Positions 7,752 through 21,571 of a DNA stretch of 64,000 nucleotides are shown piece by piece; positions within the stretch are counted from its first letter, which is position 1, and each line of letters begins with the position of its first letter. The stretch lies in IMG/VR virus record IMGVR_UViG_3300008116_000002; one strand, written 5' to 3'. The stretch comes from a virus. Taxonomy: Duplodnaviria > Caudoviricetes. Position numbers and translations under genes: made by a program. The notes under the pieces are model-generated. The model had not been told where the DNA came from and did not search any database. It was given only the letters and a program-made list of their open reading frames with translations.

Positions 7752-7940
7752 ATGTCAGTTAAGAAAAAGAACTTTGATCTCGACAGAGAGAAAAAAATTA
7801 AAAACGTTCGGCAAAAAAATGTGCTAGACAAGCACAGAAAATTAATATATAATATTGCATCATCCAAGAACATTGTTTCTGAAGATGATGACGAATTAGA
7901 TTATGTGTATGCAACTGATACAAAAATCAAACGTCGTTAA
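7752..7940 (+). CDS. Hypothetical protein (62 aa)
   Basis: ORF with AGGAG RBS, basic N-terminus and acidic patch. Confidence 0.55.
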   Translation: MSVKKKNFDLDREKKIKNVRQKNVLDKHRKLIYNIASSKNIVSEDDDELDYVYATDTKIKRR

Positions 7941-9044: not shown

Positions 9045-10849
9045 ATCGAACCATATCTTCGCACAAAATCTTTAAAATTCTCATTTGTATTTTCAGATGT
9101 CGACGAATTTGGAGTTACTGTTGTTGAATTTTTTCCAGAATCGCCTTGGCCTAAAATGTTATTGGTAACATTGTTAACTGTGCCACTAAATTTTTCTTTT
9201 GTATAATCAATAAGTTCTTCACTTAGCTTAGTTGTATCTTCTATAGTCTTTGCTAGGGCTGTACCTAGTCCGGGAGCAAGATTAATTTTCTGATCTTGTA
9301 TTGTTATTTCGCCTAATTGATCTAAAAACGGCACTATCTTTTTCTCGATATCTTCCTTAGAAAGAAAATCTAGATTGTCTGAAAATTTTTCTAATGCTTC
9401 ATTTGCTTCTTTTAGTAATTTATTGAATGCGCCTTGATTCTGCAATTCATCATATTCTTGTCGCAGTTTTGCTTCTTCATTTTTCTGTGCTATAATATCT
9501 TTTTCTCTTTGTTCGGCTTCATCTAGTTTCGCCATTTGTCCTTCGGTGAGTTTCTGCCCATTTATCATTCCACCTTGAGATTTAACCCATCTTGCATATT
9601 GCCCTTCGGTCCATTTCGTTCCGTCACCCAACGGGCTATCTAGATAACGTATATCTCCCATTGTACCTCTAACATCATAGGTTTCACCTGGAGCTAAATC
9701 TCTACTAGCATTAAAAGGCCCAGGCATATTTCCGAATAATGATCTATTAGAAGGCGAATACGGACTTCCGAATAATCTACTAGTATTTCTCGCGCCTTTA
9801 TTTGGCAAACCCCCTTTAACAATATCCTCAATAGTTGCATCTGGATCATCAGGTAATAACATAGTAAGTCCTAATGCAGCTAATGCCCCCGCAAGCCCTC
9901 TTCCTGCACCACCTGGAGAAAATCTACTAGGTCTTCCTGTTCTAACATTCTCGGCATCTACAACTCGAGGACCATACTTTCCTTCATTCCAGGGGAAACG
10001 CGATTTGTAATTTGGGTCGAAGGGTGCGCCTCTGCCCGGACCTTCCAATAGAAGGCGGTTACCTCCTGGTCTTGTTGTGGGGCGGGTGCCTCCTCCGCTC
10101 GGGTTCTTTCCATCAGGAGGTAGGACAACAGGAGGCTGGCCCCCAGGTTTCTGTCCACCAGGGAAATTGGCCCCAGGCATTCCAGGAATCGTAGGAAATA
10201 ATCTAGATAATTTAGTAATTCCGTCTACTAATTTATCGAACCCATTAAGTAAACCTTTAAAACCGGACATTAAAGTACTTGATAATAAAGAGATCGCACC
10301 AACTATTCCTGCAAGAAGAATTTTACCTAAGCCAGATAACATTCCTCCAGATGCGCCGCCGCCCATATCTAAACCCGACATTCTTCTAGCAATAGCTTCG
10401 GCAAGCTTTTCTCTCTCAATTGCACGTTTAGAATCTGTACTTTGCCTAGCTATAAAATCTATATTTCTAGCTTGTCTTTCGGTTATATCCCTAAGTGCGC
10501 TCATTTCCTCCATCATTTTTTGTTGATATTTAGATGGGCCGAATACCTTACTAAATAAATTTGTAAAGAACCCTTTATCGGGTTGCGCTTTACCTCCAAA
10601 GGATGAGCCGAAAGATCCCTTGCCCTTTCCTGCTAGATAACTTTTTATTTCTGAAATACCGCTACCAAGTTTAAAAACTTCCCTTTGTATATCTTTATTT
10701 TCTTTATTAGATGAAGATCTCCTATTCTTAAAGATTTCATCAGATATAGTATGCAATATCTTCGATTGTTCTCGAAGACTATCATTTTGTGCCTTTAGGC
10801 TATCTATGATAACTCTATCGGTTGGGTTCAACTTATCGAAAGGTAACAT
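9032..10849 (-). CDS. Putative tail tape-measure / baseplate hub protein (gp29 analogue)
   Basis: 605 aa, N-terminal coiled coil, Gly-rich hydrophobic segments (GGMLSGLGKILLAGIVGAISLL, GLAGALAALGLTMLL); directly downstream of gp26/gp51; size similar to T4 gp29. Assignment is positional. Confidence 0.55.
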   Translation of the reverse strand: MLPFDKLNPTDRVIIDSLKAQNDSLREQSKILHTISDEIFKNRRSSSNKENKDIQREVFKLGSGISEIKSYLAGKGKGSFGSSFGGKAQPDKGFFTNLFSKVFGPSKYQQKMMEEMSALRDITERQARNIDFIARQSTDSKRAIEREKLAEAIARRMSGLDMGGGASGGMLSGLGKILLAGIVGAISLLSSTLMSGFKGLLNGFDKLVDGITKLSRLFPTIPGMPGANFPGGQKPGGQPPVVLPPDGKNPSGGGTRPTTRPGGNRLLLEGPGRGAPFDPNYKSRFPWNEGKYGPRVVDAENVRTGRPSRFSPGGAGRGLAGALAALGLTMLLPDDPDATIEDIVKGGLPNKGARNTSRLFGSPYSPSNRSLFGNMPGPFNASRDLAPGETYDVRGTMGDIRYLDSPLGDGTKWTEGQYARWVKSQGGMINGQKLTEGQMAKLDEAEQREKDIIAQKNEEAKLRQEYDELQNQGAFNKLLKEANEALEKFSDNLDFLSKEDIEKKIVPFLDQLGEITIQDQKINLAPGLGTALAKTIEDTTKLSEELIDYTKEKFSGTVNNVTNNILGQGDSGKNSTTVTPNSSTSENTNENFKDFVRRYGSIYRY

Positions 10850-10852
10850 GTA

Positions 10853-11050
10853 TTATCCCTTAAATGCTTTTTGTTTCAATTTTTCGTTTTGTTCGCTAAT
10901 GTGTTCTATAAGCATAGTGACGTAAATATCTCTTTCCCATGGTAACATATTTTCTATTTCAGTTAACGAATAATTATGACTATTCATTAATGAAAAATTT
11001 AACTTATAATAGTTAAGAAGACCCTCATGAGAAAGAGTTAAACGAAAAAA
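10853..11050 (-). CDS. gp51: gp51-like baseplate hub assembly frame (probably reached by -1 frameshift from gp26; not in ORF track)
   Basis: Translates FFRLTLSHEGLLNYYKLNFSLMNSHNYSLTEIENMLPWERDIYVTMLIEHISEQNEKLKQKAFKG*; YSLTEIENMLPWERDIY is the short gp51 signature of marine/freshwater T4-like phages; first ATG (10987) has no RBS. Confidence 0.8.
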   Translation of the reverse strand, partial: FFRLTLSHEGLLNYYKLNFSLMNSHNYSLTEIENMLPWERDIYVTMLIEHISEQNEKLKQKAFKG

Positions 11051-11730
11051 TTTTGTAGACCTTCTAATTTAACTTCATTCTTAGTTCCACACTTACTACA
11101 ATTTTGCTCAACAGTTTGAGTAATTTTTGGCATGGTAACAAAGAATTTTTCTAACTTTTCAAACTGACTTCTTGAAAAAGAATTAACAAATTCTATTAAC
11201 TCTTCTTTTGTATAATCTGTGTATTGTTGCTCATCTGTAAATACCACTTTGATACAGGATGACAGCATCTCTACAATGTTTTCCGAATTAAAATTTTCAT
11301 ATATTGATGCGATTTCATCAAAAACAGGATATCTCATCTCCAATCCAATAGTATCAGTAATTAAAATTTTGGTAGTATGCTCAGAATTTTTTTTAACTTC
11401 TGCCCGAGTAATATCTAATTCAAATTCAATCTTATTTTCACAATTATTACAAGTTAAAGTTAAGGAAGTTTTTTCTCCTATTGATTTCGCTCTAATATTA
11501 ATGAACAAATATTCAATATCAAAATTAGGAAGTTCTTTAACTTTTAGTTTATTAAATGTACAAACATCTACTAAATCTGTAACTATTTTATAAATTTCTT
11601 CAGAATCCGACTCTAATGCGGTTAAGAGAATTTTATATTCTTTAACTAAGAATGGTCTATATTTTACTTTTTCTTCGGTAGAAGGTAAAATCAATTCATA
11701 GGTTGGTGTTTCTAATTTAGGTAAAGCCAT
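11038..11730 (-). CDS. gp26: Baseplate hub subunit gp26
   Basis: MALPKLETPTYELILPS...YRPFLVKEYKILL, FDIEYLFINIRAKSIGE, two CxxC pairs, EGLQNFF end. Confidence 0.9.
   Translation of the reverse strand: MALPKLETPTYELILPSTEEKVKYRPFLVKEYKILLTALESDSEEIYKIVTDLVDVCTFNKLKVKELPNFDIEYLFINIRAKSIGEKTSLTLTCNNCENKIEFELDITRAEVKKNSEHTTKILITDTIGLEMRYPVFDEIASIYENFNSENIVEMLSSCIKVVFTDEQQYTDYTKEELIEFVNSFSRSQFEKLEKFFVTMPKITQTVEQNCSKCGTKNEVKLEGLQNFFV
11044..11053 (-). promoter_or_regulatory. Candidate programmed -1 ribosomal frameshift site
   Basis: gp26 frame CAA AAT TTT TTC GTT TAA contains overlapping X-XXY-YYZ heptamers A-AAT-TTT and T-TTT-TTC; the -1 frame is the gp51-like frame. Confidence 0.65.
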
Positions 11731-11744
11731 GTTATGTCCTCAAT

Positions 11745-12578
11745 TTATGGTATCGTTTCAATGTCTGGAGATAGTATAGGCCCATCTCCTAAACCGCTTT
11801 CTACTCTGTTTGGTTGCTCTCGACGTATTCTAATACTACGGTCGTCTTCAGTTTCTCCCTCAAGATATTCTGTATCTCGTCTTACTGTGTTTGCTATAAT
11901 ACCTCTTTCAGTGTTTATACTTGGCAATGATCCCCTTTCATCAGTATTTTCTAAGATACTCTTTAGTAAAGGATTATTGGTATTTACAACTTGTTGCTCC
12001 CATACTTCAGGATACCTAACCGCATTAGGAATCTTATGATAAGGAAACCATCTTCTATACGAAAAGGTAACATTTAGTTTGTGTACTTGATTTTGTGTAC
12101 TATTGTTAAGATCAAGTAAAGCCACGCTTCTAGGAAAAGCATCTTCCAATGTTATCGCATATGTGATATTATCTTTTTCGTCTAACTGAAATATAGTAAT
12201 AGGTACGGTATAATTATCTGCATAATGCACAAAATATTGAAACGGGTCTACGATTATATTAGTCCAAGCATCAAAAAATCCTTTTACATCCATATCCGTA
12301 TCAAGCAAAAATGTCATAGTTATACCTTCTCCTCCATACTCAGAATTAAAAGGTCTTTGATATGCTGGTCCGTATACTCTTTGCTGTTTAACACCTATTG
12401 TTTTAGATGGCAAATTTGCGGATTCGCAAAATAGGCTTATCAATCTGTTAGTCCAAATAGTCTGCGTAAGATCTGCCAAACCTTTTGGCGTTGGAAAGGA
12501 TATTTCAAATCTATTAGGTTTAGCTAATCCTCTAATTCTTACTTCAGTTTGAAAATCGCTTATAGAAAAATTTGCCAT
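11745..12578 (-). CDS. gp54: Baseplate tail-tube initiator, gp54-like (gp19 paralogue)
   Basis: GLAKPNRFEISF, FCESANLPSK, ITMTFLLD, AFPRSV...KLNVTFSYRRW. Confidence 0.7.
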   Translation of the reverse strand: MANFSISDFQTEVRIRGLAKPNRFEISFPTPKGLADLTQTIWTNRLISLFCESANLPSKTIGVKQQRVYGPAYQRPFNSEYGGEGITMTFLLDTDMDVKGFFDAWTNIIVDPFQYFVHYADNYTVPITIFQLDEKDNITYAITLEDAFPRSVALLDLNNSTQNQVHKLNVTFSYRRWFPYHKIPNAVRYPEVWEQQVVNTNNPLLKSILENTDERGSLPSINTERGIIANTVRRDTEYLEGETEDDRSIRIRREQPNRVESGLGDGPILSPDIETIP

Positions 12579-13642: not shown

Positions 13643-14812
13643 ATGGCAAAAGGTATCTACGATCCCGAAAAAGATTCCGTTGACAGTATACGAAAGAAAT
13701 ACGAAGCGGAATATAAAAATCAGTTCAAGGGTGCGTACAATATAGGAACCCATGAATACCCTGAGGGGCTTCGGGTAAAACCGGATCTTCAGCACTACGT
13801 GGCGTTCTATATTAACGTCAGAGAAAAGAGCTCGACGTCGATTATTCAATCCAGAAGAAATCCTTTTGAGGATTATGTTGTAGATGAAAAAACTCAAAAA
13901 GAAATTGACGCTATTGCCGCACAATCGAGGACCGGTAGAATAACTCAAGCGGATGCGGAGTCCGCAGTAGCAACCGCAAAAAACTATGCAGGTAGGATAG
14001 TTGCGGGTGCGACCTTAATAGGGGCGGGATTAAGCTCCGGTATACGAGGCGCAGGAAAAGCACTGATCCCAGCAACTTTAGCGGGGGGTGTCACGTCAGT
14101 AGTCACAAATATGATAGATAATGCAAATTTTCAGGCATTCAAATCTGGTAGAACTTCTAGATTAAAGGATGTCATAACATTAAACATAGAAGAAAGGCCT
14201 TCGGTAAGATATGGCGTTAATTATACCAACTCTGATGTGGCTGGCTTACTTGGACTGGGTGGAATCTTTATTCAAGGTTCCGCGGCTCTAACAGCTAAAA
14301 ATTTAAAAAATGCCGAACCTGAATTACAAGCTAGATTTCTAAGTGAGTTAGCTAGAATTCCTTCTCTTGGTCAGGGCGGAGGCATTATTAATGATCTAAG
14401 AGAATTATCATCAAGAACAAAAACCAATCCATTTCGGGAAACTTTGTTTGAATCGGTTAATTATAGAAGTTTTACTTTTAGATATAGATTTTTTCCAAAA
14501 AGTGTTTCCGAAAGTCGAAGAATAAAAGATATAATACAATTATTTAAGATACACATGCATCCTGAATTAACTGCACAAAAATTGTTCTATGTTTATCCTT
14601 CAGAATTTGATATACAATATTTCTACAAAGATAAAGAAAATGATTACCTACATAAATTTACTCGATGCGCACTAACAGATATGGCAGTCGATTACGGTGG
14701 CGAACAGTTTTCTACGTTTCAAGATGGTGCCCCAGTTGAAGTAGGATTATCGTTGACGTTTACAGAATTAGAAAGTTTAACTTCCGGAGCTATTGATTCC
14801 TATGGCTATTGA
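13643..14812 (+). CDS. gp48: Baseplate tail-tube cap gp48
   Basis: NPFRETLFESVNYRSFTFRYRFFPKS, YPSEFDIQY, CALTDMAVDY, LTFTELE. Confidence 0.88.
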   Translation: MAKGIYDPEKDSVDSIRKKYEAEYKNQFKGAYNIGTHEYPEGLRVKPDLQHYVAFYINVREKSSTSIIQSRRNPFEDYVVDEKTQKEIDAIAAQSRTGRITQADAESAVATAKNYAGRIVAGATLIGAGLSSGIRGAGKALIPATLAGGVTSVVTNMIDNANFQAFKSGRTSRLKDVITLNIEERPSVRYGVNYTNSDVAGLLGLGGIFIQGSAALTAKNLKNAEPELQARFLSELARIPSLGQGGGIINDLRELSSRTKTNPFRETLFESVNYRSFTFRYRFFPKSVSESRRIKDIIQLFKIHMHPELTAQKLFYVYPSEFDIQYFYKDKENDYLHKFTRCALTDMAVDYGGEQFSTFQDGAPVEVGLSLTFTELESLTSGAIDSYGY

Positions 14813-15410
14813 TTTCTTTTCAGATTTTCCGAAAATATCATATACTATAGATGACTATGAAACTAGACAAGTTGTCGTGGACATATTTAAGCGAGTTATC
14901 TTATCTAAAGAATATTTAGACAATTCCTTATATTTTGAAGAATATGATGTTTTGCATGGAGAAACGCCCGAGGAAGTTTCCTATAGATTTTATGGCACAA
15001 CGAATTTAAACTGGGTAATTTTAATGTTTAATAATATTATGGATCCTCGTTTTGAATGGCCTGTTTCAGAAGAAACCTTATATAAAATTACAGAGAAAAA
15101 GTACGGAGCAGCTCAAAACGTATTTGCTATTAATCGAGCAAAAAATAATAAAGGTTATATCGTTGAGACGTTCTTTATTCTTACAGAAGATTCTACACAC
15201 GAAGAACCTATAAGATTACTTGTAGAAAATCCAACAGATGAGGGTATCAATACTCCAATCGCATATCAGGATTCTACAGAAATTGCAGACTATGAAAGTA
15301 ATTTTGAAGTTGAAACTGAAAAAAATGAAAAGAATAGAAGTATTAAAATACTAAAACCTGCAGTAGTACAAGAAGTTATTTCTAACTATAAAAAATTAAT
15401 TACTATTTAA
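14802..15410 (+). CDS. gp53: Baseplate wedge subunit gp53
   Basis: FFSDFPKISY, GETPEEVSYRFYG...WVILMFNNIMDPRFEWP, NEKNRSIKILKP. Confidence 0.9.
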   Translation: MAIDFFSDFPKISYTIDDYETRQVVVDIFKRVILSKEYLDNSLYFEEYDVLHGETPEEVSYRFYGTTNLNWVILMFNNIMDPRFEWPVSEETLYKITEKKYGAAQNVFAINRAKNNKGYIVETFFILTEDSTHEEPIRLLVENPTDEGINTPIAYQDSTEIADYESNFEVETEKNEKNRSIKILKPAVVQEVISNYKKLITI

Positions 15411-16768
15411 TGGCCGCTCCACTAGAAGAAATCTTAGATGTACCCGGGCAGGTTCAAATTGATAACCTTGTTCTAATATCTTTTAGAAAGAATACCTACC
15501 TAAATATTACAGATTATCTTATAGAATTAAATCTTTTTGAAAGTATTTTTAATCCATTTGTAACTGGAGAAATACTTTTAACAGATAGTAGAAATTTAAT
15601 TCGAGCATTCGGGCTTGTTGGTGGAGAGTACTTATCAGTTACGTTAAGAACTCCTACATTTTCTTCGGATAAAGGTATTTCAAAAATTTTTAAAATATCT
15701 TCATTAGAAGATAAAACATATATTAAAGACGGAGGTACTTTAATATACAAATTGACTTTTACTTCTATAGAAATGTTTCAGGATTTATTGAATCCAATTT
15801 ATAGAGCATACGAAGGAAAACCTGAAGAAATAATAAAAAACTTATATGAAGAATATTTGATGACAAATCGTAATATTCGCCTTTCCGGAGAACCAGTTGC
15901 GGACATAAAAACTCCGTTAACCTTTTTCGGGGAAACCTCTAATACGTTAAAATTTGTTAGTCCGGGTTGGTCACCCCTACAGTGTATAAATTGGACGTGT
16001 AGTAAAACATTGCCGGCAAACGGAAAAAGCGCAAATTTTTTATTTTGGGAAACAACTAAAGGATTCTATTTTGGAAATTTAGATACCATACTTAATAGAC
16101 CTGAGGTATCTTCGATAGGAAATTATGTATATTCTTCTCCAAAAATAGTAACCACCGATGAGGATGATATTGCGAATTTAAGCTTTATGTTTAATATACG
16201 ATCATTAACCGTGCCGAAAGTTTTTGATCAATTACAAAATTTAATGTATGGTTATATTTCAAATAGGGTAATTGACGTAGATATTATTAATAAGGTATAT
16301 GAAACTATAGATTATGATCATGGCACCAATTTTAATAACTATTCTCATTTAGAAAAAAAAGAAGCGGTTCCTTTTTTCGACGATACTGTTGAAAGTAACC
16401 CGGCTACCTACAGAAAAGTAAATTTTTCTAATCCAGGATTGCACACCGGATTTCTGAAAAATTTTAGTGAGCGAGAAAAAAATATCTGGGGAAATAGAAG
16501 ATCTAACGTGTTGGAACTGAATAATTTTAGAATGGAATTAGTAATTCCAGGAAGAACAGATATTGAGTGCGGGCAAACAATGTATGTTAGATTGCCTAAA
16601 AAAGATCCTGGGGGATTAACTCAAGAAAATAAAACATTATATCAAGATGACGATATGTATTCTGGGTATTATTTAATAACTAGTTTAAATCATAAAATTA
16701 ATCCAAGAACTCATTTTATTACTATGACAGTAACTAAAGATAGTTTATCATATGAGGTACTTAAATAA
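15410..16768 (+). CDS. Baseplate hub protein (gp27-like)
   Basis: Position between gp53 and gp5; FESIF-x-PF-x-TG, FLFWETTKGFYF, IPGRTDIECG, SGYYLITSLNH. Confidence 0.7.
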   Translation: MAAPLEEILDVPGQVQIDNLVLISFRKNTYLNITDYLIELNLFESIFNPFVTGEILLTDSRNLIRAFGLVGGEYLSVTLRTPTFSSDKGISKIFKISSLEDKTYIKDGGTLIYKLTFTSIEMFQDLLNPIYRAYEGKPEEIIKNLYEEYLMTNRNIRLSGEPVADIKTPLTFFGETSNTLKFVSPGWSPLQCINWTCSKTLPANGKSANFLFWETTKGFYFGNLDTILNRPEVSSIGNYVYSSPKIVTTDEDDIANLSFMFNIRSLTVPKVFDQLQNLMYGYISNRVIDVDIINKVYETIDYDHGTNFNNYSHLEKKEAVPFFDDTVESNPATYRKVNFSNPGLHTGFLKNFSEREKNIWGNRRSNVLELNNFRMELVIPGRTDIECGQTMYVRLPKKDPGGLTQENKTLYQDDDMYSGYYLITSLNHKINPRTHFITMTVTKDSLSYEVLK

Positions 16769-19302
16769 TGGTAGAATTTATTTGGTGGGTTGGTGTAGTT
16801 GAAGATAGAAATGACCCCGAAAAACTAGGTAGGTGCAAGGTTAGAATTTTTGGTTATCATACTGAGGATAAAACTATACTACCAACAGACGATTTGCCTT
16901 GGGCGATTCCAATACAGCCGATAAATTCTGCATCGGTTTCGGGGATAGGTTTTACTCCAGTCGGAATTGTAACTGGAACTTGGGTCACCGGTTGGTTTTT
17001 AGATGGCGAGGATAAGCAACAACCTGTTATGTTGGGAACTATTCCTGGAAAAACTCCTGCCAGAGAAGAAGCGAAAGAAAAACAAAAACAGGACTCTGCG
17101 GACGATACAGTATTAAAGGATAATACGGGAAGTCCAATATACGAAGAGAGCGGTAACTTCATTTTTAAAAGCGCAGAGGTAACAAGTTTAAGAAATTCGT
17201 TTGATCCTTTAAAACCTACAGATATTGATATTCTTTTTAATAGTATTGCAAATAAAGTATCGTCTAATAATCAAACTAAGATCGGTACCAATAATGAATT
17301 AGGAAAATATCAATTTACGATATCTGATTTAATGGTGTTAGGATATTTGAGACTACCTTCTGATGGGAATATACTAAAAGAAATAGTTGACGATAGATCA
17401 TTTTGGGTCGGTTTAAATGGAATAACATCTAAGCAGGAATTTTTATCAAACAGGCTTCTTCAAGAAGAAGCAATGTTAAGATTAACTAAATCTAATTACG
17501 ATAAATTAATTTCTTTGGATAAAATTTCTACAAAAGATGATCCTAAAGTAATTGCAGGATTTTTAGCAAGTGCACACGTATTTGGGGTAACTGGTGCAGA
17601 CGATTTAGAAAGAAAAGATGCCTACGGTAGACAAGCAAAAGAATTTTTTAATTTGGGTGTAGTATCGCTTGGCGGGAATTTAAATACTGATATAGATATC
17701 AAATATTCTGAAGTTGAAAATTATTTACCTGAAATAAATGACGGCAATATTACAAATGAGGACCTAGCATTGAGCCCAGGATTTTCTGATCCAAACAGAA
17801 AATATCCAAAGTATGAGTATGAAGGATTATCCGACATTAATAAACTAGCAGTAGGTAACAGGTCGCATCTGTTATTTAAAATAAAAGAAGCACAAAAAAC
17901 AGAAAACATACAAATAGGTAGAGCGGAAAAACGTTGGAGTGAGCCCGAGCCTGCATATGCTGCGTCATATCCATATAATCAAGTAATTGAAACTGAAGCA
18001 GGGCATGTAATAGAACTTGACTCTACTCCTAACGCAGAAAGAATACACATATTTCATAAAAAAGGTACCTATATAGAAATAGATGTAAACGGCACTATGG
18101 TAAGAAAAGTATTAGGCGATAACTATGAAGTTTTAGATCGTAATAATTTTGTATATGTTAAAGGTGCGAATAATTTAACTGTAGAAGGCAAAACTTCAAT
18201 TTATGTAAAAGATAATGCCGTCATTGAGGTTGATGGAGACGTATCTGTAACAGGTCACAGAGATGCGGTAGTTCAAGCTGCTAGAAACTTAGCTGTTTCT
18301 GGAAAAAATTTGGTGTTATCAGGAAAAGATGGAGTTAATATAGTTTCGGATGGAGCTATTAATTTGCAGGCAGGAAGCGATATAAACATAAACTCCAAAA
18401 ATAATTTGTCTCTGCAGGCAACAGGTACAATTAGCATAAAGGCATCCATTAACTTATTAATGGATGCAATACTAGTTAAGACGCAGATGGGAGCAAACTT
18501 TGTTAAAGATTTGGTTATTCGAGCATTTGATCCTCCGGAATTAAGAAATCCCGTTAGATCTTCAGTTCCTGTTTTAGAAAGAACAAGTTTTTTTCAGGAA
18601 GATTTATTATTTGATGCAGGGGAAGAAGAGGGGGATGAATGGAGACGAAATAGAGAAGCAACAGGTGAGACATCTAAATTTCTTAAAGTGCGCTGGGAAT
18701 TACCACCACAAGGAAAATCTTATCGTTCTACACAACCTAGTACCCGCGTATCATGTGATGTTTGTAATCAGTTTGGAAGAATGTTTCCTAGATCATTTAA
18801 ACTATCAAAAAATTTCACAATAGAACATATGTTAACTGGGGACTGGGCTCCTCAAAAAGTACAAGCACAACGAGGATTGTCGGAAAAGCAAATTGTTTGT
18901 AATGCAATGCAAATTGCAGAAAATTGTCTCGAACCATTACTTAAAAGGTATCCAAGGTTAAAAATTACCAGTTGGTTTCGAGATGTTAATATTTTAGACG
19001 AAAACGGAAAATCTGTTGGTATGAGCGACCATGGATTAGCTGCAGCAGTCGACATACAAGTTAATAATCTTTCTTTGCAAGATCATCTTTCTGTTGCGCA
19101 CTGGTGTCTAAGCAATATACCTTATAGACAACTTCTTTTTGAGTATAAATTATATCCAGGTAGTGCAGATCCAAGAACTGCATGGATTCATATTGCGTTA
19201 TTATTGGATGAAAATGGAAAAATTATTGAGTCTTCAAAACCTCCAGTGCAGACATGGCAAGATGATCGCCCAATACTTGTAGGTCTTCCTGTTGATGTTT
19301 AA
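16768..19302 (+). CDS. gp5: Baseplate central spike gp5 with lysozyme-like insert and C-terminal peptidase M15 domain
   Basis: OB-fold WWVGVVEDRNDPEKLGRCKVRI; YPYNQVIETEAGHVIELDSTPNAERI; beta-helix repeats; SDHGLAAAVD and WIHIA zinc motifs. Confidence 0.9.
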   Translation: MVEFIWWVGVVEDRNDPEKLGRCKVRIFGYHTEDKTILPTDDLPWAIPIQPINSASVSGIGFTPVGIVTGTWVTGWFLDGEDKQQPVMLGTIPGKTPAREEAKEKQKQDSADDTVLKDNTGSPIYEESGNFIFKSAEVTSLRNSFDPLKPTDIDILFNSIANKVSSNNQTKIGTNNELGKYQFTISDLMVLGYLRLPSDGNILKEIVDDRSFWVGLNGITSKQEFLSNRLLQEEAMLRLTKSNYDKLISLDKISTKDDPKVIAGFLASAHVFGVTGADDLERKDAYGRQAKEFFNLGVVSLGGNLNTDIDIKYSEVENYLPEINDGNITNEDLALSPGFSDPNRKYPKYEYEGLSDINKLAVGNRSHLLFKIKEAQKTENIQIGRAEKRWSEPEPAYAASYPYNQVIETEAGHVIELDSTPNAERIHIFHKKGTYIEIDVNGTMVRKVLGDNYEVLDRNNFVYVKGANNLTVEGKTSIYVKDNAVIEVDGDVSVTGHRDAVVQAARNLAVSGKNLVLSGKDGVNIVSDGAINLQAGSDININSKNNLSLQATGTISIKASINLLMDAILVKTQMGANFVKDLVIRAFDPPELRNPVRSSVPVLERTSFFQEDLLFDAGEEEGDEWRRNREATGETSKFLKVRWELPPQGKSYRSTQPSTRVSCDVCNQFGRMFPRSFKLSKNFTIEHMLTGDWAPQKVQAQRGLSEKQIVCNAMQIAENCLEPLLKRYPRLKITSWFRDVNILDENGKSVGMSDHGLAAAVDIQVNNLSLQDHLSVAHWCLSNIPYRQLLFEYKLYPGSADPRTAWIHIALLLDENGKIIESSKPPVQTWQDDRPILVGLPVDV

Positions 19303-19316
19303 GAATATTTTACCCC

Positions 19317-19324
19317 AATAAATA
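19317..19324 (+). promoter_or_regulatory. Late promoter variant AATAAATA upstream of gp25
   Basis: One mismatch to TATAAATA, in the intergenic gap. Confidence 0.55.
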
Positions 19325-19330
19325 TCTAAT

Positions 19331-19729
19331 ATGGCCACTTCTAGAGCAACTAAAAAGTTTGTAGATTTAGATCTTTCTTTTAAGGTGAACCCTTTCACCA
19401 AAGATCTTTATCTAAAAACGGATGAGGAAGCAGTTAAAACTGCGGTAAAACATCTCATTCTAACTAAAAATTTTGAGAGACCTTTTAGACCAGAAATAGG
19501 CACACAAGTTACTGCATTGATGTTTGAGAATTTTACGTCTGCAGTAAAAATTGCAATGGAACGAACAATACGTGAAACTATAGAAAAATATGAACCAAGA
19601 GTTAGATTAGTCGATATAAAAATAACTGAAAATTTAGATGATAATGATTTAACTGTGACTATAGTATTCACCTTAAAAAATACGGATACTCCTATAACGA
19701 TATCCACATTACTAAGTAGAGTAAGATAA
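19331..19729 (+). CDS. gp25: Baseplate wedge subunit gp25
   Basis: DLDLSFKVNP...AVKTAVKHLILT...ERPFRPEIG...YEPRV. Confidence 0.93.
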   Translation: MATSRATKKFVDLDLSFKVNPFTKDLYLKTDEEAVKTAVKHLILTKNFERPFRPEIGTQVTALMFENFTSAVKIAMERTIRETIEKYEPRVRLVDIKITENLDDNDLTVTIVFTLKNTDTPITISTLLSRVR

Positions 19730-21571
19730 ATGGCAAACTATAGAATTTCGGAATTAGATTTTGATGAGATCAAAATCAATCTAAAACAATTCTTAACAAA
19801 TTATAGAGATAAGAATAATAATCTTATTTTTAAAGATTATGATTTTGAAGCATCCAGTCTGTCTATTCTTTTAGATATTTTATCTTATAACACATATTAT
19901 AACGCATACCTTGCCAATATGGTTGCAAATGAGATGTTTTTAGATTCTGCAAGCAAAAGAGAATCTGCAGTTTCAATCGCAAAACATCTAGGATATACTC
20001 CAATATCTTACAGAAGTGCAAGAGCAAAAATCTCTTTTGTTGCGGATACTCCCCAAGGAAGTCCTGCTACACTTACACTACCAAAATTTTCAGCATTCAC
20101 TACTACTGTAGATGGTGTGTTATTTGCCTTTTCTAATTTAGATTCTGTTACAGTAAGACCAACTGAGGGTAGATATATTTTTAATGATGTAACTATAGTA
20201 GAAGGAGAACCTCTAAGTTATACTTATAGAGTAGATGTATCTGGACCAGGCGAAAAATATGCAATTCCTAACTTAAATATTGATACCACAACTATAAGAA
20301 TAACAGTACAAAACTCTTACTCTGATACTACGCAAACGGTTTATACCAGGGCAGGAAACTTAGATGGTTTAACGGGAGAATCTTTAGTATACTTCTTAGA
20401 AGAAAATCCAACCGGAAATTATGAAATCTTTTTCGGTGACGGTGTACTAGGTAAAAAATTAATATCAGGTAATTTGGTAAAGATAGAATATTTAGTTAGC
20501 AATGGTTCGGTTTGCAACGTATCAAGCGAAATCGAACAAATATTCAATATATCTACTGTAGTAAATAACCTAAGAGTATCCTCTCCGATTATTGCGACTG
20601 AAAATTCTACGGGCGGAGATGAGCCTGATACCTTAGACGAAATTAAATTTAAGGCTCCTAGATTCTTATCATCATTTAATAGAGCAGTCACTGCAAATGA
20701 TTATAAGTCAGTAATAGAGGCAAATTATCCTTTAGTGGAATCCGTATCTGTTTGGGGTGGAGAAGAAAATGATCCGCCTAAATATGGTAAGGTCATAATT
20801 TCATTAAAACCATATTCAGGATATACTATTAATCAGGAATTAAAAGACAAAATATCTAATGAGATTCTTTTAGATCGCAAGGTAATGTCAATTGTTCCAG
20901 AATTTGTGGATCCTAATTATCTCTATATTACTTTAGATATTAAGGTTAAATTTGACGCTAAAAATTCTAGATATACAATTTCAGAATTAGAATCTTTGAC
21001 CAGGAATACTGTGCAGGAGTATTTTAGATTTGAACTACAAAAGTTTAATAAGCCCTTTATATATTCTAAGTTATCTAAACAAATAGATGCTTTAGATAAT
21101 TCAATCATAGGAAATTTAAGTTCCTTTAGAGTCCAAAAAAGAATCAACCCCATAGTAAATGGTAATAATGGATATACAGGAACAACTTTAATAAAATTTG
21201 CTAATAAACTAGTTTCAGGTACTCTGCAATCTACAGGATTTTATTATAAAATAAATGAAACCATATTCTCTGTTTATATGAAGGATGTATTAACATCTCA
21301 GGATACTGGGACTGTTAATTTATATGATTTAATTAATGATGGTTTATTAGTTTCAAATATAGGCACAGTAAATTATTCCGCCGGCACGGTTTCTATTCCT
21401 TCTTTAGTACCTGCAGGATTTTATGAAAATGCAACAGATATTAGAATATCATCTAAAATACAGGATTTAGATATTACATCTTCTAAGGATTTAATATTAG
21501 TTATTGATGACAGCATCTCGAATGTTTTAATTAAACGTGCTGCAGGATTAACAATAAACATTACTACGTAA
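19730..21571 (+). CDS. gp6: Baseplate wedge subunit gp6
   Basis: ELDFDEIK, DYDFEAS, EMFLDSA, RAVTANDY, SVWGGEENDPPKYGKV. Confidence 0.95.
   Translation: MANYRISELDFDEIKINLKQFLTNYRDKNNNLIFKDYDFEASSLSILLDILSYNTYYNAYLANMVANEMFLDSASKRESAVSIAKHLGYTPISYRSARAKISFVADTPQGSPATLTLPKFSAFTTTVDGVLFAFSNLDSVTVRPTEGRYIFNDVTIVEGEPLSYTYRVDVSGPGEKYAIPNLNIDTTTIRITVQNSYSDTTQTVYTRAGNLDGLTGESLVYFLEENPTGNYEIFFGDGVLGKKLISGNLVKIEYLVSNGSVCNVSSEIEQIFNISTVVNNLRVSSPIIATENSTGGDEPDTLDEIKFKAPRFLSSFNRAVTANDYKSVIEANYPLVESVSVWGGEENDPPKYGKVIISLKPYSGYTINQELKDKISNEILLDRKVMSIVPEFVDPNYLYITLDIKVKFDAKNSRYTISELESLTRNTVQEYFRFELQKFNKPFIYSKLSKQIDALDNSIIGNLSSFRVQKRINPIVNGNNGYTGTTLIKFANKLVSGTLQSTGFYYKINETIFSVYMKDVLTSQDTGTVNLYDLINDGLLVSNIGTVNYSAGTVSIPSLVPAGFYENATDIRISSKIQDLDITSSKDLILVIDDSISNVLIKRAAGLTINITT

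Follow-up and report, generated by a model that had tools for sequence, protein, structure and literature searches.

A deeply conserved candidate -1 frameshift site links gp26 to gp51 in T4-like phages

In phages lambda, P2, and Mu, a -1 frameshift makes the G and GT chaperones just upstream of the tape measure gene. For phage T4, how gp26 and gp51 act in assembly of the baseplate hub has been unclear since the 1970s. Both T4 proteins are listed as hub assembly chaperones, with gp51 absent from the particle (PMC3004832), and a 2016 review described T4 as the exception to G-T frameshifting (PMC5009743). We analyzed a 64,000-nucleotide (nt) stretch of DNA from a freshwater T4-like phage (IMG/VR record IMGVR_UViG_3300008116_000002; hereafter the window), in which a gp26-like gene on the minus strand runs into a gp51-like domain in the -1 frame. 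All positions are numbered along the window. The sequence points to two-way decoding of the gp26-like gene by -1 ribosomal frameshifting, which would give both gp26 and a gp26-51 fusion; we assign this reading a probability of roughly 85%.

The gp26-like open reading frame (ORF) belongs to the PF12322 (T4_baseplate) family, with an E value of 2e-63 and a score of 214.4 bits against a cut-off of 24.5, and matches positions 5-232 of the 282-position PHROG profile phrog_150 ("baseplate hub"). Its 3′ end reads CAA AAT TTT TTC GTT TAA. Within this sequence, T_TTT_TTC lies in the X_XXY_YYZ phase: X is the T of the AAT codon at 11050, the P-site codon TTT occupies 11049..11047, and the A-site codon TTC occupies 11046..11044, so that both tRNAs can re-pair in the -1 frame. 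That frame is open from 11068 to 10853 (71 codons) and ends with a stop codon at 10855..10853. A first-pass annotation of the window had described the same site and frames, placing the opening of the -1 frame about five codons before the slip site; direct reading of the minus strand confirmed the description, with the opening six codons before the heptamer. The annotation had also proposed a second, overlapping heptamer, A_AAT_TTT. Although both heptamers are present, only T_TTT_TTC is conserved; relatives carry CAG AAT, GAT, or AGT at the other, which we rejected as a second functional slip site and consider incidental.

The -1 frame ORF matches phrog_634 ("baseplate hub assembly catalyst," gp51) with an E value of 5e-27, as well as positions 229-277 of phrog_150. 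Since the gp26-like ORF covers positions 5-232 of the latter profile, the two frames are consecutive parts of one protein family. Profile searches of the window found a single gp26 and a single C-terminal domain. After a slip, 62 residues would be added, starting with the CGT codon at 11044..11042. The predicted fusion of 292 amino acids (aa), consisting of 230 zero-frame codons up to TTC and 62 from the -1 frame, has the junction ...LQNFF/RLTLSHEG and should give the tryptic junction peptides LEGLQNFFR and LTLSHEGLLNYYK, while the unshifted 230-aa product ends in LEGLQNFFV.

We propose that most ribosomes would read the gp26-like gene to its TAA codon, producing gp26, and that a minority, with tRNA-Phe on UUU in the P site and on UUC in the A site of the U_UUU_UUC heptamer, would slip back by one base. 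In the -1 frame, the two tRNAs would pair again with UUU UUU, and translation would go on for 62 codons to complete the fusion. A Shine-Dalgarno (SD)-like GAAGG located 9 nt upstream would aid the shift. The T4 counterparts would be gp26 for the short form and gp51 for the long form. In E. coli, U_UU.U_UU.C and U_UU.U_UU.U support measurable -1 shifting without stimulators, H_HH.U_UU.Y motifs are among the most efficient classes, and U_UU.U_UU.C is used by insertion sequence (IS) elements (PMC4066793).

To examine conservation, we drew related loci from IMG/VR with four different gp26 queries and added 14 named single-gene phages. The latter included pelagiphage Mosig, the cyanophages S-CAM1, P-SSM2, Syn9, S-B68, and S-CREM1, Sinorhizobium phage phiM19, Rhizobium phage N34, two vibriophages, Cronobacter phage S13, Pseudomonas phage pf16, and a Desulfovibrio phage record. 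At each locus, the gp51 C-terminal domain was located by profile and its frame was scored relative to gp26. All 243 evaluable loci have the C-terminal domain in the -1 frame together with an in-phase T_TTT_TTN heptamer, the result anticipated by the first-pass annotation for an alignment of these junctions. The A-site codon is TTC at 210 loci, TTT at 31, and TTG at two; it lies one codon ahead of the gp26 stop at 209, and the zero-frame stop falls within 0-8 codons after the heptamer at every locus. The codon that supplies X differs in meaning (AAT, AGT, GAT, GCT, TCT, or ACT), while its final T is constant. When the codon usage of each individual lineage is taken into account, the chance that X = T and a P-site TTT were both kept in all of them is jointly 10^-5.8 for nine clusters with <40% identity and 10^-10.5 for 15 clusters with <50% identity; the clusters were taken as independent, which overstates these figures somewhat. 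The stretch AAAATTTTTTCG shows no variation within the window's own clade, while adjacent third positions vary freely. As judged from these alignments, the slip site is conserved far beyond chance. The gp51 domain itself occurs in 606 phage records.

As homopolymer runs are prone to error, a sequencing or assembly mistake, or a decaying gene, could in principle have split what is really one in-frame, 292-codon gp51-like gene. The same T6 run is present with zero differences, and with the same frame layout, on independent freshwater metagenome contigs, which argues that the run is not an assembly error. Moreover, the 243 loci come from isolates as well as metagenomes and from many sequencing groups, a zero-frame stop follows the heptamer closely in every one, and the short gp26 form is needed too, as T4 shows. 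We regard this explanation as scarcely credible. Positions 10600-11800 of the window share their full word content with freshwater and lake metagenomes from many studies and were also found in at least eight runs labelled "fungus metagenome." In one metagenome run (X19), a variant strain with approximately 8% differences co-occurs.

GenBank records present gp51 as a gene of its own downstream of gp26, encoding a short "baseplate hub assembly catalyst" of 44-61 aa. Translated independently, gp51 would here be a 44-aa protein starting at the ATG at 10987, and the -1 overlap would reflect compact packing. A few lineages, such as P-SSM2 and the vibriophages, do have an ATG directly after the gp26 stop. 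In the window, however, this ATG, the first in the -1 frame, is 21 codons past the slip site and within the conserved domain, and no purine-rich sequence resembling an SD element precedes it, as the first-pass annotation had noted. Some relatives replace it with Val or Ile, and 39 of 58 unique relatives lack any in-frame ATG, GTG, or TTG between the slip site and its position. The starts assigned to "gp51" in annotated records differ from one record to another.

Homology and coding-type conservation both begin at the heptamer, upstream of any start codon. In distant phages, tblastn matches start at query residues 1-7, which correspond to the slip site. In the stretch from the gp26 stop to the first ATG, variability at the three -1 codon positions (entropy of 0.47, 0.26, and 1.05) indicates that the region ahead of the ATG evolves as translated sequence. 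Thus, the -1 frame is open from the slip site, is under protein-coding selection, and lacks a start of its own. Random phase between gp26 and gp51, together with a conserved independent start, would have spoken for a separate gene; instead, the phase is -1 throughout and no start is conserved. T4 has the domain only fused to a gp26-like body. We consider an independent gp51 very improbable.

We compared the predicted products with those of T4. The 249-aa T4 gp51 matches PF12322 over residues 1-201 and phrog_634 over residues 147-246, in agreement with the statement in the first-pass annotation that it consists of a gp26-like N terminus and the C-terminal domain. The 208-aa T4 gp26 matches PF12322 alone. 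In a joint alignment, the predicted fusions of 14 phages are colinear with T4 gp51 across the junction, that of the window from end to end and including the C-terminal extension, and T4 gp26, which ends in ...RGLKEFFELL, terminates exactly at the equivalent of the slip site. Together with the uniform layout of the related loci, this colinearity supports the central proposal of the first-pass annotation, that one gene gives both gp26 and gp26-51 by a -1 shift.

As controls, we examined T4-type genes from T4, avDM3, KPV15, MX01, fHyAci03, PSTCR6, PspYZU05, and one IMG/VR relative, whose genomes carry a separate in-frame gene 51. None of the eight gp26 genes contains an in-phase heptamer; they retain the G-L-K-E-F-F motif through GAG TTC TTT, GAA TTT GTT, and similar codons. 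Mosig, P-SSM2, Syn9, and pf16 each have one PF12322 locus per record, and T4 has two. Across the genes compared, genomes without a dedicated gene for the long form have the heptamer and those with one lack it; the heptamer is kept at synonymous positions beyond the expectation from codon usage and lost where it is not needed.

A maximum-likelihood tree contained three clean clades, corresponding to the programmed ribosomal frameshifting (PRF) type, T4-type gp26, and T4-type gp51. As the tree is unrooted, it does not show whether duplication or frameshift came first. Genes of the PRF type are found in several families as well as in some Straboviridae (vibriophage V05 and Cronobacter phage S13), a distribution suggesting that the two-gene state of the T4 subgroup is derived. 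Some Straboviridae, T4 among them, have a paralogous gene for each of the two forms, and our data suggest that most T4-like phages use the frameshift, with T4 making both forms from two genes.

Other features of the T4-type genes were apparent. The stop codon of T4 gene 26 overlaps the start codon of gene 25 (TAATG; 7803-7806 in locus L083). The T4 record also lists an internal gene 26 product, 26′ (95 aa), indicating that T4 makes a further product of the gp26 family by internal initiation. In Klebsiella phage KPV15, gene 51 is annotated as two "baseplate protein" coding sequences on the minus strand, 575-937 and 180-503 (L266 180-937). A stop follows ...KFKNP and approximately 70 nt separate the two, which could reflect an error in the sequence, an inserted segment, or a truly split gene.

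We also considered how the shift might be stimulated. The GAAGG element is at the distance given in the first-pass annotation (about 8-10 nt), and most relatives have GAGGG in its place. In 165 unique junctions, pairing of positions -17..-6 with the anti-SD sequence had a mean energy of -6.9 kcal/mol; pairing of -4 kcal/mol or below was found in 90% of junctions, compared to 9% of other intervals in the same genes. Downstream, a weak hairpin is part of the window's minimum-free-energy fold (z of -1.5 to -2.8), and stronger hairpins (z < -4) occur at the same place in six of 13 distant phages. We infer that the shift is ribosomal and that GAAGG helps it.

Several observations weigh against this reading. 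The SD-like element overlaps a Glu/Lys-Gly codon pair whose conservation extends to T4-type gp26 genes and, since it coincides with conserved codons of non-shifting genes, the SD signal is inseparable from coding constraint. We found no conserved downstream RNA structure in the window's clade, where the consensus fold of 58 relatives is approximately 0 kcal/mol. Lastly, RNA contigs come from a single metatranscriptome (X20) and cover 11076..11380, stopping short of the slip site.

That the RNA contigs end where they do leaves room for transcriptional slippage, in which RNA polymerase would add one U within the T6 run and a minority of mRNAs would carry both parts in-frame and undergo normal translation. 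Known cases of polymerase slippage use runs of approximately 8-9 or more. The site is a homopolymer, T6 at 210 loci and T7 at 31, and polymerases are known to reach the same outcome by slipping on T or A runs (PMC5009743). However, runs of six or seven are short for efficient polymerase slippage, their length stays at 6-7 without drifting upward, and they are always in the X_XXY_YYZ phase. In addition, U_UU.U_UU.C is a measured ribosomal shift motif (PMC4066793), and the SD-like element is at dnaX-like spacing. We therefore view polymerase slippage as improbable, although a slightly better candidate than an independent gp51, and favor ribosomal frameshifting.

We found no description of a gp26/gp51 frameshift site in full-text searches of the literature, and among the papers searched none in which "baseplate hub assembly" and "frameshift" occur together. 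We examined 15 single-gene gp26/gp51 records in GenBank, and a frameshift is annotated in none of them, in contrast to the HK97 record, where the frameshift is annotated. These searches agree with the statement in the first-pass annotation that such a site was not known to have been described for T4-like phages. On the comparative evidence, this is a genuine recoding site, conserved deeply and not annotated so far. Its recognition would correct hundreds of genomes, including those of marine cyanophages and pelagiphages, that list an orphan "gp51" of 44-61 aa, and gives T4 gp26 and gp51 a testable role in hub assembly. It also provides a clean natural example in which one recoded gene and a duplicated gene pair are interchangeable solutions.

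The features of the locus and the genes on either side of it are listed in Table 1. On the minus strand, the gene order is head-closure gp4, gp2, the tube-like gene, gp26/51, and the 605-aa gene. In relatives, counterparts of the 277-aa gene carry the annotation baseplate tail tube initiator or tail tube. Neither Pfam nor PHROG gave a match to the 605-aa protein. A language-model protein atlas gave it a score of 0.91 to the PF25671 (T4_Tape_measure) cluster, which we treat only as a lead, and syntenic genes in vibriophages, pf16, phiM19, and Syn9 match tape-measure PHROGs with E values from 2e-10 to 1e-3. The gp26/51 gene thus lies between a tube-like gene and a gene that is tape-measure-like by position, size, atlas score, and the syntenic matches of relatives.

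Table 1. Coordinates of features at the gp26/gp51 locus and of its neighboring genes
Feature	Position	Strand	Basis or remark
gp26-like baseplate-hub assembly gene, zero frame, 230 aa	11038..11730	-	PF12322, phrog_150
Slippery heptamer T_TTT_TTC	11044..11050	-	Read directly; X_XXY_YYZ phase
-1 frame extension, gp51-like C-terminal domain	10853..11050	-	phrog_634, phrog_150
SD-like GAAGG, possible dnaX-type upstream stimulator	11060..11064	-	Ends 9 nt before heptamer
Weak 6-base-pair hairpin, doubtful stimulator	11021..11038	-	Begins 5 nt after heptamer
44-codon ORF from first ATG of -1 frame, probably not an independent gene	10853..10987	-	Start unconserved
Tail-tube-like gene (gp54 / tube-initiator type), 277 aa	11745..12578	-	phrog_45 "tail tube," E 5e-40
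Tape-measure-like gene, likely gp29 equivalent, 605 aa	9032..10849	-	Begins 3 nt after -1 stop

In some relatives, one or two small ORFs of 40-190 aa lie between gp51 and the large gene (L068-L070, L076, L080, and L082, at ~2380-2950; L001, 2713-3115; L086, 1717-2136; L091, 1704-2123), while in the window the large gene comes immediately after the gp51 frame. The large cyanophage gene that follows gp51 (800-1100 aa) has endolysin/peptidase-type PHROG matches as well as weak tape-measure matches (L085 1713-3197, which is Syn9; L095 1731-3168; L093 1730-3198), suggesting that it may encode a tape measure with a built-in cell-wall hydrolase. We recognized no separate gp27 or gp28 homologue adjoining gp26/51, unlike in T4. 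A divergent baseplate block on the plus strand (13643-21571) encodes a gp48-like tube cap, a gp53-like wedge subunit, a 452-aa tail protein (phrog_350), a gp5-like hub/lysozyme (844 aa), gp25, and gp6.

We next consider whether the two products could be a chaperone pair. An AlphaFold2 model of gp26 (predicted local distance difference test [pLDDT] score of 87.7) was searched against 48,161 PDB representatives. The three best matches all involved residues 1-93: 3fgx (Z 8.0); 2ob9 (Z 7.3), which is the HK97 tail assembly chaperone, with 84 of 104 residues matched; and 3klu (Z 6.9), which is B. subtilis YqbN. The fourth match had a Z of 5.0, leaving the top three 2-3 Z units above the rest. We take YqbN to be the XkdN-type gene upstream of the tape measure gene of the skin prophage. 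"XkdN-like tail assembly chaperone" is a recognized family name (PMC11948020).

The gp26 model appears to consist of two similar units, residues 11-113 and 121-223. Each contains a β-hairpin with an R-x-P motif (KYRPF at 24-28 and MRYPV at 132-136), helices, and a β-hairpin with a Cys pair (CNNC and CSKC). Possibly, gp26 arose by internal duplication of a tail-assembly-chaperone-like module. The C-terminal domain was modeled as a helix-loop-helix hairpin (pLDDT 85), for which a fold search returned only generic helix-loop-helix matches, with Z at most 5.4.

In the role that we envisage, the pair may act like lambda G/GT. The gp26 body shared by both forms would hold the tape-measure-like protein of the adjoining gene. 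As the hub and tube are initiated, the long form would use its helix-loop-helix tail to dock that protein to a partner in the tube or hub, and neither form would remain in the virion. Several results tell against a chaperone function. Searches of this kind can give Z values of 7-8 by chance, and a Foldseek search of the gp26 model against PDB and the Swiss-Prot part of the AlphaFold database returned nothing significant (E 0.69). At the sequence level, gp26 matched no Pfam tail assembly chaperone family at E values up to 10, a gp26 profile search of PDB sequences found no match, and hhalign against HK97 gp13 gave a probability of 0.3. The relatives of HK97 gp13 in IMG/VR are all at least 91% identical and too close for a useful profile; the sole hhalign match fell on the second R-x-P motif. 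By these searches, gp26 is outside the known tail assembly chaperone sequence families. Further, no homology between the 605-aa protein and T4 gp29 was detectable, small ORFs part gp51 from the large gene in some relatives, and genes 27 and 28 intervene in T4. Prediction of a complex between gp26 and the 605-aa protein gave a score of 0.00, reported by the tool as no verdict, and we used it neither way.

The first-pass annotation had inferred that gp26/gp51 are the T4-lineage equivalents of G/GT. Gene order and the resemblance to the HK97 chaperone partly support this, but there is no sequence link to the chaperone families or from the 605-aa protein to gp29. That the gp26/gp26-51 pair acts like G/GT is plausible but unproven, with the case for and the case against about evenly balanced. 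A broader proposal is that gp26/gp51 are the long-missing chaperone pair of T4-like phages and remote homologues of lambda G/GT, with the frameshift ancestral and universal in long-tailed phages and only the T4 subgroup having replaced it by duplicating the gene. Under this proposal, the fast-evolving downstream gene would be the tape measure in cyanophages and pelagiphages. We hold this tentatively, leaning slightly against it.

With the described frameshift sites of E. coli dnaX and IS elements, the locus shares a bacterial-type X_XXY_YYZ heptamer and an SD-like element approximately 10 nt upstream; U_UU.U_UU.C is itself among the IS motifs. It differs from both in that the window's clade lacks a strong conserved downstream hairpin, and from dnaX in that the shifted product is shorter there and longer here. 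With T4, the locus shares PF12322 in gp26, gp51, and the window product. The short product ends where T4 gp26 ends (G-L-x-x-F-F), and the long product is colinear with T4 gp51 up to and including the C-terminal helix-loop-helix domain. The difference is one of encoding, as T4 has two divergently transcribed paralogous genes without a heptamer (GAG TTC TTT) and the window has one gene with a predicted frameshift.

Compared to lambda gpG/gpGT, HK97 gp13 and its frameshift product, and P2 E/E+E′, gp26 is approximately twice the size, with a second α/β unit and zinc-ribbon-type Cys pairs, shows no sequence or profile similarity to the tail assembly chaperone families, and has U_UUU_UUC in place of G_GGA_AAG. 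As in those systems, a short product and a C-terminally extended product share an N terminus, a -1 shift close to the stop (within a few codons) yielding the longer one (here, as predicted from sequence), and the gene is located between a tube-like and a tape-measure-like gene. As for lambda, HK97, and P2, the T4 homologues of the window products are assembly factors, with gp51 not in the virion, and the N-terminal domain of the gp26 model resembles the HK97 chaperone. The T4 lineage may therefore follow the lambda G/GT tail-chaperone rule rather than being an exception to it.

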